Shown here piece by piece: positions 42,120 through 46,645 of a DNA stretch of 64,000 nt. The position numbers and the translations under genes are program-made. The stretch is taken from the NCBI RefSeq assembly GCF_054482525.1, contig NZ_CM137006.1. The stretch is one strand, 5' to 3'. Numbering within the stretch: the stretch's first letter is position 1; every line of letters starts with the position of its first letter. The notes below the pieces were generated by a model. It had not been told where the DNA came from. It saw only the letters and a program-made list of their open reading frames with translations, and searched no databases.

Positions 42120-42527
42120 TTACTCTAATGGTTTTATTAATTGTAAATTTTTAAATGTCATGCTTAATAAGCCATCAGAAAAATAAAGAAAAAATTTATA
42201 TATCCTTTTGTTTTTTAATTTCTTTATATACCCATTACTTATATTACCTGACTTGTGATTATCGATTAACTCAGCAGAATCCATAGCGAACACTAAATCA
42301 TCTACATCAGAAAATTCAACTATCATTTTTTCCCTAATGTTCTCATTTTTATAAATGTCAATAAATAACGTCATGTTAAAATGAGATTCTTTGAATGTCG
42401 TTTTTACTTCTAACAAAACCCCATCATGCCAGTCAATTGAACTCACAATGTCAAAATCGCTCATTATATAATCTCCATTATCCGTTTTAATCATGGAGTA
42501 ACAACGTTTGCAGGTATTGACCACCAA
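42120..42527 (-). CDS. putative Rhs immunity protein (start uncertain; likely an internal Met)
   Basis: small AT-rich ORF immediately 3' of the Rhs toxin tip, overlapping the Rhs stop; canonical toxin-immunity position. Confidence 0.5.
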
Positions 42528-45500
42528 AGAGGTGGTGCAAGTGAAGGTATAAATCGAATCACTCTATATATAACATACCCTGCGCCAATTGTAGCACCAG
42601 TTGCAAGAGCCGCATCAGTAGTTGATAGCCCGGAGGTTTTGCATGACAGATCTTTACTTGGTTCTGGCTCGAAACCATATTTTTTTGCACATTTCTTAAT
42701 GCTATTTGGTGCTGATGAGTAATCCTCACCATGGGACATACCTCCAAATTCCCCCATTACACCACTCCCATTTTTACACTCCCAATGCAAATGTCTTCCG
42801 TCACCAACAGCATCGCCATCTATTCGGATTCGACAACCTTTACCACAGTCCTTCCATTTTCCTGAAGTATGAGCTAATCCCAATGGATCAATCCATTGCA
42901 CAGGATTGTTCATAACATAACTGTACGGGTTTATTCCCCCCGCCAGCCCTATCGGGTCCTGGATGATATACCGCCCCTGCAACGGATCGTAGTACCGGTG
43001 ACGGTTATAATACAGCCCCGACTCCTCATCGTGTTGCTGCCCTGGCAGACGGTACGGCTGGTGCAGGTGATGCGGGTTTTCCTCATTCAGCAGGTTGCCC
43101 CATTCATCATACTCCCCGCTCCACGCCGTATTGCCGTCTTCGCTGATGAGCGCCAGCGGCAGGCCCCGGTGGTCGCAGTGGTAAAGATGAACTTTTCGCG
43201 CCGGTGTGTATTCCGGCTCCACCTGTTTTTCCAGTTGCTCCACCGTCAGCCCGCACTGCGCAAGCCACGCCCGGCTTTCACTGCTCACGCGGTCTGCCCG
43301 GATTTCCCCCTCCAGCCTGTCCAGCAGCCGCACCAGTTCAGCCGGGAACACCACGCTGTGTCCGTCCTCGCTCCCTTCCTGCTGGAGCTTCTCCGCCAGG
43401 CTCCGCCGCTGCGTTTTCTCCCGCTCGCCGTTGTCTGTTTCGATGCGGATGAGCGGTGTGAAGCTTCCCGGCTCGTATACCGTCTGGATACGTGTGCTGT
43501 CGGTCTGCACCGTCGTCAGGTGGTCGCCGTCCCAGCCGTACCACGTCACCTCCGGTTTACGCGACAGCGACATCCACCCCGTCAGGTCACGCTCCCGCCG
43601 CCATACCCGTTTCGCCATTCGCCGTCCCAGCGGGTCGTAGAGGTAGCGGCTCTCGACCAGTGGCTCTCCATGCTGTATCCGCGTGTAGAACACCAGGCGG
43701 TGCTGGCTGTCGTAGTGGTGGGTCCGCTCGTCGTCCGTCCGTATCACACCCGCCGGGATGCGGTCCGTCTTCTCCGTCAGCCTGCCGTATTCATCGTGGC
43801 GGTAGACATAGTGCGCATCCTCCGCGATGCGGTTATCCGGCCACACTGTGAGTGTACTGTCCGGGTGCAGCTCCGGGTCCGGCAGCCGGTTGCCCGCCGG
43901 GTCCGTGGCATACGGGATGCGGATGTCCAGGTCCGGTGCGAGGGTGCGCACGCTCTCCAGCCTGCCCGTGGCGCTGTAGCCGTATTCCCGCGTCTGTCGC
44001 GGGCCGCTGATGCGCACCAGGTCGCCGTTGTCATTCCACCCGTAGTCACGGTCATACACCAGGCTGTTCAGGTGCTGACTCTGTAACTGACCTGCGGGGG
44101 TGTATGTGCTGGTCAGTTCATATGCGGAATTACTGCCTGCCATGCTGCCGAAGCTGCGCACCGTCTCACGGTGCAGCCTGTCCCGCGTATACTCGACCAG
44201 CGGCGTCCCGCCCAGCTTCATTCCCGCCAGGTAACCGCTGCCATACGTCAGCCACTCCACCGGCGGCAGGCTGTCCGGCGTGACGCGGTTTGCCAGCCCC
44301 TGTTCGTTGTATGCCTGTTTCGTCTCATGCTGCCACAGCAGTTCCCCCGTCTCCGGGTTCTTCAACGTCTGGCGCTCACTGGTCAGACGGCCTTTATCGT
44401 CATAGCCGTAGTGGACCGCCACACGGTGGCCTTCGCTCAGGTGGCTGATTTCTCTCAGCCAGCCGTGGCCATCATACTGCCACTGCTCTGCCGGTTCGCC
44501 GTTCACCGTGCGGTGAGTGAGGCGGTCCGATTCATCGTAGTACCAGAGGATGACAAGCCCCTCATCTTCACTCTGCGTGAGTTTTCCGGTCAGGTCATAA
44601 TGATAACGTTGCGTCCGCCCGTCAAAGCCGCCCTGCTGTACCAGCCGGTCCAGTGCATCGTAGCTGAAGGCGCTGTCACTGCCGTTCTCGTTGGTCAGCG
44701 TGGCGACACGCCCTGCCGCGTCATACTCCATACTGCGCGTCAGCCCGCCCTGCGTGGTGCTGACCGCCTTTCCCCACGCATCGTACTGTGTCTCGCTCCG
44801 GTTGCCGTCCGGGGTGATAACGGCAGTCAGGTCGCCTGCGGCGTTGTATTCATACCGCGTTTCACGGCCCTGTGCGTCTTTCACCGAGGTTAACCGGCCA
44901 CGGTTGTCATAGCGGCGGTAAAGGCTGATGCCATCCTCACGGTGGACCGCCGTCATCTGACCAAAGCGGTCGTATTCATAGCGGGTCTGGTAGCCCGAGC
45001 AGTCGGTGAACGCCAGTAACTGACCGTAGCGGCTCCACGTCATCTGCCGGGTGCTGCCCGTCGCATCTGTTGTCGTGGCCGGTAATTCACTGTGCGGATT
45101 ATCATAAGCATACCGGATGACGTCCCCACTGCGCGATGTCTCCGATACCAGCCTGTCCCGCTCATCATACGCCCGGCGGCTCTCCAGCCCGTCCGGGTAC
45201 ACCACCGCCGTCACCAGGTTCCCGTCGTTATAGTAAAATTTCGTCTCCCGCCCGTCCGGCGTGGTGATGTCCGTGATGTCGCCTGACACCACATTCAGAC
45301 CGTACTCTGTCCGCCGTCCCGCCGCGTCCGTCTGCGCCGTAAGCCGCCCCACCGGGTCATACCCGCTGCGCGTGACGCTGCCGTCCGCCAGTTCTTTTTT
45401 CACCACCCGCTTCAGCCCGGCCCCGCCTTCTGTATGCAGCACCTCACGCCGGTTCAGGCTGTCCGTGACGGTGATGCGGTCCTGCTCATACTGGTAGCGG

Positions 45501-46645
45501 TAACTCAGGCCTGCCGGGTTCAGCTGCTCCACCACCCGCCCCGCATCGTCGTAGCGGTAGCGCATCTCCGGCCTTCCCGCGTAACGGTGCGCCACCATCC
45601 GGCCCGGGTGCTGCGCGTCATACGTGAAAGCGCGCACCTGCGTATTGCTGCGGTCATATACCGCCAGCAGTTCACCGGCTTCCGTATACGTGTACCGCAC
45701 CAGTGGCGCACCGGGCAGGCTCTCCGGGTATGCCGGGTCGTGCATCAGCCACACCGCCGAAAGACGGATGCCCCTGTCGGGGCCGTATTCGGTACCGGGC
45801 AGTGTGTCGGGGAACGCTGAGGCTGAGAGAGGGCGGGAACGGTCAGAAGAAGATAGCGAAGAGGTGCGGGCCTCTTCCGCACGCTGCGCCTGCGTGGTCA
45901 GCACCAGACGGAACTCCCGCCCGGCACCGTCCGTCACGCCGGTGATTTCCCCGGCCAGGTCACCGGCGGCCTCACGCCGGTACGTCAGCGTCCGCCCGAA
46001 GCGGTCCGCCAGCCCGGTAAGCACCCGGTACGGCGGCAGCGGCGCTGGCAGTACGTCCTCAGCACCCGGCACCCGCTCAGACCACCCCAGTATCCACCAC
46101 GGTCCCTGTGCGCTGTTGGTCGCCAGGTAAAGATGCGGGCTTAACCGGATATCCGGCGACAGCGCCCCCCACAGCCGCGCCAGCGTGTGGCCGTCCGGCT
46201 GCGCTGCCTTACCACCGCGAACCAGCCACATTGACTCGCTGCGGCTGTACACCGCCTCCCCCGGCAGCAGCGGCTCAAAGTGAATGCTCCGCCCGCCGTT
46301 GTCGTTGAGTATCAGTCCGTCATCACGTAGCTGTAAGCGGATATCAGAAGGCGCTTTCCAGCCGGGGCCGAAAACGCCCACCGGCGCAGGCGTCTTCGTC
46401 CGGTAGCTGCTGTAGGTGCGGGAGAGAATGAACGGCAGCGGGCCGGGCAGCGCAACATCCGTCTCGCCGGGCAGCACCTTCGCCCCCAGCAGCGGATTTA
46501 CCGGGTTGCCCGAAGTCATCCCGCCCGGACACACCGAGCACGCCACGCCGGTGGGCGCGCCAATTCTTACACCTGCCGAACCCTGGACAATGGGACCGCC
46601 ATACTGAGTCATATCTCCCTGACGCGCCGCTGGTTTTCCGCTCAT
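42491..46645 (-). CDS. Rhs-family polymorphic toxin: N-terminal PAAR-like region, YD-repeat shell, DPxGL-type boundary, variable C-terminal toxin
   Basis: 1384 aa; many YD repeats; ...[41 protein letters not shown] followed by about 125 aa of AT-rich unrelated sequence; GGA RBS before ATG. Confidence 0.9.

Follow-up and report, generated by a model that had tools for sequence, protein, structure and literature searches.

The stretch of DNA analysed here, referred to as the window, comprises 64,000 nucleotides of contig NZ_CM137006.1 (NCBI RefSeq assembly GCF_054482525.1), and encodes on its minus strand an Rhs polymorphic toxin. The 127-residue C-terminal tip of this protein was found to be a composite: a conserved Cys/His-rich module, here called the head, is followed by a linker and by a 41-residue tail that matches the Pfam family Tox-WTIP. 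The head defines a protein family of its own, its genes are followed by a conserved candidate immunity gene, and the tails behind it are exchanged among homologues. We assign a probability of about 0.55 to the reading that the head is the effector proper, its four Cys probably holding zinc, and that the tail is a portable membrane-interaction module. The open reading frame (ORF), the three parts of its tip and the candidate immunity gene are located as follows (pLDDT, predicted local distance difference test).

42491..46645, minus strand: Rhs polymorphic toxin ORF, 1384 residues plus stop, annotated in RefSeq as 'RHS element core protein'
42671..42874, minus strand: Cys/His head (aa 1258-1325; tip residues 1-68), delimited by AlphaFold2, profile search and conservation, without family assignment
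42617..42670, minus strand: acidic, Pro-containing linker (aa 1326-1343), predicted to be disordered (pLDDT <50)
42494..42616, minus strand: Tox-WTIP tail (aa 1344-1384), recognised by Pfam PF15654 and its signature motifs
42120..42464, minus strand: candidate cognate immunity protein, 114 residues, directly downstream of rhs

A conserved Cys/His head

A sequence-only reading of this stretch had pointed to a Cys/His cluster beginning CGKGC in the tip, and this cluster (CGKGC...GRHLHWEC) proved to lie at the conserved centre of a protein family. With a profile built from four close homologues, hmmsearch recovered 63 clusters among 1.84 billion representative proteins, 51 at E ≤ 1e-10. In 48 of 54 representatives the head comes right after a DPxGL-like motif, the other six being truncated or carrying variant motifs. 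Alignment of 53 divergent members (in tip numbering) showed H28, W31, C33, H48, C62 and A63 to be invariant, and C10, C14, I16, R17, I18, R27, H30, E42, S47, P56, G67 and F68 to be conserved in at least 90% of the sequences. The conserved set includes four Cys and three His, together with Glu, Arg and Trp.

When the 53-member alignment was supplied to AlphaFold2, tip residues 1 to ~72 were modelled with a pLDDT of 85-96, and the linker and tail with values below 50. The predicted fold of the head consists of four antiparallel strands and one helix. Judging from the strand register, C10 and C14 (in a hairpin turn), C33 (at the end of strand 3) and C62 (in the helix) could converge, while R17, H28, H30 and E42 would lie on one face of the sheet. 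The pattern of conservation fits a functional metal-binding or active site, metal binding and catalysis both being predictions, and the four Cys probably hold a structural zinc. Treating the 127-residue tip as one single domain was considered and rejected: both linker and tail come out disordered in the model, and homologues have exchanged the tail for others.

No match to the head was found in Pfam (searched with the tip and with all 53 members), NCBIfam, PHROGs, PADLOC or by sequence profiles in the PDB (A1, A2), and comparison with known metal-dependent toxin folds (HNH/His-Me, JAB, metallo-beta-lactamase and M23/LAS) gave neither an HMM nor a fold match. Several motif analogies were also considered and rejected. 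For a JAMM/JAB site (E...HxH...S..D) the spacing is wrong and the domain too small; the cupin pattern HxH...E would need E32, which is not conserved; in the metallo-beta-lactamase pattern HxHxDH the second site is not conserved; the first Gly of a GxSxG lipase elbow is not conserved, and an alpha/beta-hydrolase fold is lacking; and of the deaminase pattern HxE...PCxxC only a single Cys is present. In the literature, the strings RHLHWEC and GRHLHW were without match, and CRIRID matched in unrelated papers only.

The sequence-only reading had stated that the tip could not be assigned to a known toxin family. This holds for the Cys/His part, which matches none, but not for the last 41 residues, which belong to Pfam Tox-WTIP (E = 1.7e-13). 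Profile and structure searches of the residues past DPLGLA met no well-characterised family with different catalytic residues, Tox-WTIP being a computational prediction that lies outside the Cys/His part. In the databases and literature covered, Rhs systems and Tox-WTIP tails are already described, whereas no description was found of the head family, of its immunity family or of an architecture in which head and immunity protein are conserved and the tail is swappable.

A soluble candidate immunity protein linked to the head

The candidate immunity ORF is preceded by GGAG 8 nt ahead of its ATG. It encodes a soluble, acidic protein without signal peptide or transmembrane (TM) segment (maximum Kyte-Doolittle hydropathy over 19 residues, KD19, of 0.81), for which no Pfam match was found. 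Behind it lies a putative end of the transcription unit.

42053..42084, minus strand: terminator-like hairpin closing the rhs-immunity unit, from a consensus scan only

Linkage between head and immunity protein was assessed in the surroundings of nine head-bearing genes, to which locus L003, with a WTIP tail on a different head, was added. An immunity homologue lies directly downstream in eight of the nine head loci, irrespective of the kind of tail: WTIP in the window, L005 and L007; a Gly-rich 'AEPCG' tail in L002; 'PWWAPLLL' in L008; another TM tail in L012; a CxxxC motif plus TM helix in L013; and a Pro-rich tail in L014. Three loci that lie outside the construction of the profile still score E-values of 1e-20 to 1e-23 for the immunity homologue. 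In L012 (6769-7467), the immunity protein downstream of a 1586-residue Rhs protein of the head family is a 232-residue tandem fusion of two immunity domains, both halves of which match the profile (E = 1e-12 and 7.5e-11). At L003, where the WTIP tail stands on a different head, the neighbouring gene is unrelated and the immunity homologue is absent.

The surroundings of L002 (1-6895, a metagenome contig) are of some interest in themselves: the gene for head and AEPCG tail is located within an array of small toxin/immunity cassettes, including Imm-NTF2-2, TseH-like, Imm58 and several unannotated ORFs, and the array resembles an orphan or poly-immunity island.

Members of the head family are found in a type VI secretion system (T6SS) cluster, as a VgrG-Rhs fusion beside TssF, PAAR, DotU and TssG, and also on Rhs proteins with Sec signal peptides. 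Carriers of both kinds all have signal-less immunity proteins, so contact between the head and its immunity protein must take place in the cytoplasm.

The immunity protein shares its fold with PIM7 (8owu_E). Sequence homology between the two was not detected: a PDB search with profile A3 gave only chance-level matches (E = 0.69-1.4), and one with A5 gave none at E ≤ 10. PIM7 confers immunity to PT7, a metal-dependent DNase that is carried by a Bacillus cereus LXG toxin and acts in the cytoplasm. In the crystal structure PIM7 covers the catalytic pocket, and its D17, which tops the first helix-strand loop, contacts the catalytic residues (PDB 8owu; bioRxiv 10.1101/2021.10.19.465003). In the immunity family of the head, a near-invariant H13-D14 occupies the loop equivalent to the D17 loop of PIM7. 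By analogy, the parallel may bear on how the immunity protein acts, rather than on the activity of the toxin.

The Tox-WTIP tail and its replacements

Tip residues 87-127 align with model positions 36-79 of 79 of Tox-WTIP (PF15654; E = 1.7e-13, 51 bits) and contain both of its signatures, RxxR as RVIR (aa 1361-1364) and Wx[ST]IP as WWSIP (aa 1374-1378). The family was defined by these two motifs and predicted to be a pore-former of two membrane helices (Zhang et al. 2012, Biol Direct 7:18, PMC3482391). Our literature search on Tox-WTIP found no experimental paper, only its mention by Zhang et al., and a search on 'tail-anchored' T6SS effectors found nothing relevant. The tail in the window is weakly hydrophobic (maximum KD19 of 1.32) and has five Pro after RxxR. 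AlphaFold2 places a single short helix in it (tip residues 98-107, pLDDT ~50), and in this model the two membrane-spanning helices predicted for the family are not evident.

In nearly every member of the family, a Pro-rich linker comes after the head, and the C-terminus beyond it is hydrophobic. Proline makes up a fraction of 0.13 of the residues after the head versus 0.02 within it, and KD15, the hydropathy over 15 residues, is at least 1.6 in 40 of the 53 tails, compared with a median of 0.15 for the heads. The tails are of several unrelated kinds: WTIP, the Gly-rich 'AEPCG', a CxxxC motif followed by a TM helix, 'PWWAPLLL', and a few that are Pro-rich without a clear TM segment. WTIP tails also occur behind other heads, for example in P0020, P0116 and P0120, which have a 'GCGxPPPGAWDWATR' region, and 14 positions of the WTIP motif are invariant among six divergent tails. 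A search with the WTIP tails returned mostly very short, fragment-like ORF calls (23-81 aa) and, beyond them, a second head type.

Two further features of these tails were observed. In many tails, whether they follow the Cys/His head or one of the other heads with WTIP tails, the hydrophobic segment is immediately preceded by a CxxxC or CxxC pair (P0022, P0027, P0028, P0035, P0036, P0042, P0061, P0067, P0070, P0071, P0107, P0125 and P0128); the pair may be a metal site, a disulfide or a site of lipidation. In addition, P0124, P0126, P0138, P0139, P0141, P0147 and P0149 (34-42 aa) consist of little beyond the WTIP tail, and some of them lie on contigs of 65-317 kb. By source names, such very short ORFs come from diverse phyla (Gammaproteobacteria, Verrucomicrobiae and Oscillospiraceae); they could be WTIP peptides that stand alone, or pieces of larger toxins cut short in gene calling.

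Which part of the tip acts as the toxin

The mechanism that we favour, at the probability given above, assigns the toxic activity to the head. The Rhs protein would form a YD-repeat cage, its tip would be freed behind DPLGL, and the tip would act as an antibacterial toxin. The head of ~68 residues would be the effector proper, neutralised in the cytoplasm by the adjoining soluble immunity protein of PIM7 fold. It may be a small enzyme or ligand-binding domain, probably stabilised by Zn, that is active either within the cell or at the inner membrane on its cytoplasmic face. Joined to it by the flexible linker, the 41-residue Tox-WTIP tail would belong to a set of exchangeable C-terminal modules that interact with membranes; as an anchor, entry device or pore element it could carry the head to the inner membrane, into it or across it. 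Three points make the head the probable effector proper: it is the conserved partner of the immunity protein, it must encounter that protein in the cytoplasm, and its conserved residues are polar and resemble metal ligands.

It may instead be the tail that kills, as a membrane-inserting, pore-forming or depolarising peptide in the sense of Zhang et al. (2012), leaving the head as an oligomerisation or regulatory accessory or as a handle for the immunity protein. The presence of both signature motifs in the Pfam match is consistent with this, as is the hydrophobic or Pro-rich tail at the end of every head-family member; the conservation of WTIP is high, and other heads carry it too, and Tse5 provides a precedent for a pore-former delivered by an Rhs protein (PMC9637101, PMC10684867). 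However, the soluble immunity protein tracks the head across unrelated, non-homologous tails, whereas the immunity protein of Tse5 is an integral membrane protein. The tail in the window, with its weak hydrophobicity and its prolines after RxxR, also lacks evident spanning helices, and 13 of the 53 tails fall below a KD15 of 1.6, among them the Pro-rich tail of L014, which has no clear TM segment and yet retains the immunity gene. The polar conservation of His, Cys and Glu in the head is hard to square with a mere handle. A lethal tail appears unlikely to us.

A second alternative leaves the toxicity with the head and makes the tails modular devices for entry into the cytoplasm, like the entry domains of CdiA-CT toxins: each tail would hijack a different inner-membrane component, and the head would act in the cytoplasm, for example as a nuclease. 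The tails are indeed modular and swapped while head and immunity protein are conserved, the immunity proteins are cytosolic even for Sec-exported Rhs carriers, and the sequence-specific WTIP motif suggests recognition of a partner over plain hydrophobic insertion. Contact-dependent growth inhibition (CDI) offers a precedent, with many classes of entry domain that use different membrane proteins (PMC11630599), and the fold of the immunity protein is that of a DNase immunity protein. Yet the known entry domains lie N-terminal of the toxin, not C-terminal, no receptor is known, and neither a nuclease signature nor a nuclease fold match was found in the head. We regard this specific version as distinctly improbable.

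Returning to the head as effector with a portable tail, several observations weigh against it. At one of the nine head loci, L011, the downstream gene is unrelated to the immunity family. All members keep a hydrophobic or Pro-rich tail and WTIP is strongly conserved, so the tail may itself be the lethal part. The RxxR motif follows a hydrophobic stretch and, by the positive-inside rule, would put the head in the periplasm if the tail were a single span, which conflicts with a cytoplasmic immunity protein. Immunity folds are promiscuous, hence the likeness to PIM7 tells little of the chemistry of the head. Finally, the local vgrG contains a premature stop, which makes activity in the host strain questionable. 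A wider proposal, that 'Tox-WTIP' is not a toxin itself but one of several swappable membrane-targeting or entry tails for a widespread new family of Cys4/His3 heads of ~70 residues that act on the cytoplasmic side and are blocked by immunity proteins of PIM7 fold, is put forward tentatively and with somewhat less than even confidence.

The Rhs core and the boundary of the cassette

In Rhs proteins a YD-repeat shell encloses the tip, which is cleaved behind a DPxGL motif and then delivered into a neighbouring cell. The corresponding features of the protein in the window, and the breakpoint at which its cassette begins, are as follows.

46562..46636, minus strand: single PAAR-like unit (aa 4-28, KPAARQGD...), an incomplete PAAR domain
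46277..46510, minus strand: DUF6531 (aa 46-123), the customary N-terminal plug region of Rhs proteins, Pfam E = 1.8e-18
42875..43111, minus strand: Rhs-associated core (aa 1179-1257), TIGR03696, E = 4.7e-28
42944-42958, minus strand: DPIGL (aa 1230)
42875-42889, minus strand: DPLGL (aa 1253)
42930..42940, no strand assigned: left recombination breakpoint of the cassette, where the end of homology and the drop in GC coincide

Residues 1-1257 match positions 1-1261 of the NCBIfam equivalog 'RHS element core protein' (NF041261) with 2704.5 bits, the cut-off being 2000, and nine stretches of the ORF match the YD repeat TIGR01643. The sequence-only reading was accurate in describing a full-length ORF with a GC-rich YD-repeat core (GC of 0.637) and a DPxGL-type boundary. 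Its PAAR-like N-terminal region stands in part: one unit of ~25 residues is present, but the label is weak, as the Pfam PAAR_motif hits (E = 0.14 and 1.4) are not significant and a complete PAAR domain was not found at the N-terminus. Pairwise alignment with a genuine PAAR protein covers only the 25 residues of aa 4-28, among them a literal P-A-A-R. That the tip is encapsulated and released by autoproteolysis would be predicted here from the conserved DPxGL motifs, the only trace of either process that is visible.

The tip after DPLGL spans 127 residues (42494-42874). GC falls from 0.637 in the core to 0.438 for the tip and reaches ~0.28 in the ORF downstream, so the AT-rich stretch of about 125 residues and the abrupt compositional switch noted earlier are both real. 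The switch sets in before the motif. In 60-nt windows the fall in GC is found at the homology breakpoint: a megablast search of 5426 complete E. coli genomes showed that homology to other rhs genes breaks off at ~42930-42936, or ~aa 1237, just after DPIGLAGG. As homology ends and GC falls at the same place, the exchanged cassette begins ~20 codons ahead of DPLGL.

A 1.1-kb query made of the core end, the tip and the immunity gene was present at ≥80% coverage in 397 of these genomes (~7%), several times with 100% identity. In strain Ec-042-T5-ESBL (NZ_CP086532.1, L016 8612-9557), the tip-plus-immunity cassette persists as a decayed orphan, with an internal stop and a frameshifted immunity gene. 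It lies at the same locus, behind a full-length rhs that has a different tip and a 132-residue immunity gene, and is a textbook case of a displaced Rhs cassette. The idea that the drop in GC marks a swapped cassette is confirmed by these comparisons, at the level of sequence, for the putative toxin tip and the downstream immunity candidate, because the homology and GC breakpoints coincide, an orphan copy exists in Ec-042-T5-ESBL, and the small ORF is a conserved partner.

Genomic setting and delivery

The 64-kb window extends from ydcS to dosP on the E. coli chromosome and is 99.98% identical along its full length to the corresponding region of strain PCN033 (12 mismatches and 1 gap), from which it is thus distinct. 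The small island has the gene order ansP - yncG - yncH - vgrG - rhs - small ORF - ydcC (ISAs1/H-repeat) - yddH - nhoA. The genes on either side of the rhs-immunity unit are as follows.

46712..48820, minus strand: vgrG, upstream of rhs, with an in-frame TAG at codon 592 of 702 (47045-47047)
40638..41774, minus strand: ydcC, a transposase of the ISAs1 family (H-repeat), the customary downstream border of E. coli Rhs elements

A functional cognate VgrG, as would be expected beside a T6SS-delivered PAAR-Rhs effector, is lacking: vgrG adjoins rhs but is interrupted by the TAG. Codon 592 is CAG in the intact allele of Ec-042-T5-ESBL. The vgrG genes of PCN033 and ST70 have an extra 1-nt deletion and are annotated as frameshifted; a frameshift in the window, considered after the RefSeq annotation of PCN033, was rejected, as the window carries the in-frame TAG instead. 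T6SS core genes were not found within the window. With the rhs and immunity ORFs intact and the neighbouring vgrG cut short, delivery in the host strain is doubtful, and would need another VgrG or a T6SS located elsewhere in the genome.

These data raise the question of whether the locus is a decaying relic, inactive in the host strain, whose intact Rhs ORF cannot be delivered because VgrG is truncated. The damage to vgrG, the annotated frameshifts of yncG and yncH in the PCN033 and ST70 records, the lack of T6SS core genes nearby and the decayed orphan copy of the same cassette elsewhere all point in this direction. Against it, neither the 4.2-kb rhs ORF nor the immunity gene is damaged, the 1.1-kb query is covered at ≥80% in 397 of the 5426 genomes, several copies being 100% identical, and delivery could rely on other VgrG proteins or on a T6SS encoded elsewhere. 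Moreover, a relic would concern activity in one strain, not the nature of the element. We consider an inert locus rather unlikely.

The two genes just upstream of vgrG, yncH (DUF5445; ~49644-49834, minus strand) and yncG (glutathione S-transferase; ~49931-50420, minus strand), are intact in Ec-042-T5-ESBL. In PCN033 and ST70, where both are frameshifted pseudogenes by annotation, yncG, yncH and vgrG form a row of three consecutive damaged genes beside an intact rhs.

Other observations in the window

An ORF of 57 residues at 40052-40225 (minus strand; …FYTKQGFINEAIIRNYYD…) resembles the C-terminal remnant of a GNAT acetyltransferase. It sits in the AT-rich spacer between yddH and ydcC (AT-rich stretch 39950-42500), where Ec-042-T5-ESBL has pptA. 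Between osmC and ddpF (~7573-14339), a block of seven genes is annotated without K-12 gene names: 3-hydroxybutyrate dehydrogenase, GntP permease, 3-hydroxyacyl-CoA dehydrogenase, thiolase, CoA-transferase A and B, and a LysR regulator. The block may be an accessory island for the utilisation of ketone bodies or short-chain acids. Two lone toxin-antitoxin remnants were also noted, at ~18748-19032 and ~59106-59279; yddM is a HigA-family antitoxin without an annotated toxin partner, and ortT is annotated as 'orphan toxin'.

Implications

In terms of E. coli genomics, the element is otherwise a routine Rhs cassette, and new Rhs tips are common. Rhs tips are a main reservoir of undiscovered antibacterial activities, and the present one adds a candidate toxin-domain family of ~60 sequence clusters with clear candidate catalytic or metal-binding residues, together with a cognate immunity family that is tied by its fold to a solved immunity protein. 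Tox-WTIP, a Pfam 'toxin' family, may in fact be a portable membrane module. If so, there would be a class of tail-anchored or tail-guided polymorphic toxins, with a modular logic that mirrors that of CdiA-CT (entry first, toxin second). Should the tails be anchors or entry devices, they would bear on how cytoplasmic toxins delivered by T6SS or Rhs proteins reach or cross the inner membrane.

Comparison with known systems

The closest counterpart by position is the rhsE/ydcD locus of E. coli K-12, which occupies the same chromosomal site, beside ydcC, yddH and nhoA, and has a core of the same family and the same border, the H-repeat (ISAs1). The rhsE gene of K-12 we take to be a truncated pseudogene with another tip, whereas the core in the window is full length and carries a different cassette.

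Tox-WTIP (PF15654) is, like the tail described here, an Rhs-borne C-terminal domain in Proteobacteria, and the last 41 residues match its HMM with RxxR and Wx[ST]IP. The tail in the window differs in covering only model positions 36-79 of 79. The family is also a computational prediction without a listed immunity protein, whereas in the family of the window the immunity protein follows the upstream head. The PT7-PIM7 pair is alike on the immunity side in its fold and unlike on the toxin side, where the head shows no sequence or fold similarity to a PT7-type DNase.

Tse5/RhsP1 of Pseudomonas aeruginosa resembles the present protein as a T6SS-linked Rhs cage with a PAAR-like N-terminus that falls short of a full PAAR domain, and its C-terminal fragment contains a hydrophobic, membrane-inserting sequence (PMC9637101, PMC10684867). 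Tse5-CT, however, has no counterpart of the Cys/His head, and a sequence relationship to the tip in the window was not found. The immunity proteins differ as well: Tsi5 has two TM regions and is integral to the membrane, while that of the window is soluble (maximum KD19 of 0.81).

The CDI ionophore and other two-domain CdiA-CT toxins (PMC11630599) share with the window a modular, two-part tip in which one module is directed to the inner membrane and modules are shuffled between loci. The order of the parts is reversed. In CdiA-CT, the variable entry domain is N-terminal and immunity pairs with the C-terminal toxin or ionophore; in the tip described here, the module that is conserved and paired with immunity comes first, and the variable membrane module stands at the C-terminus.

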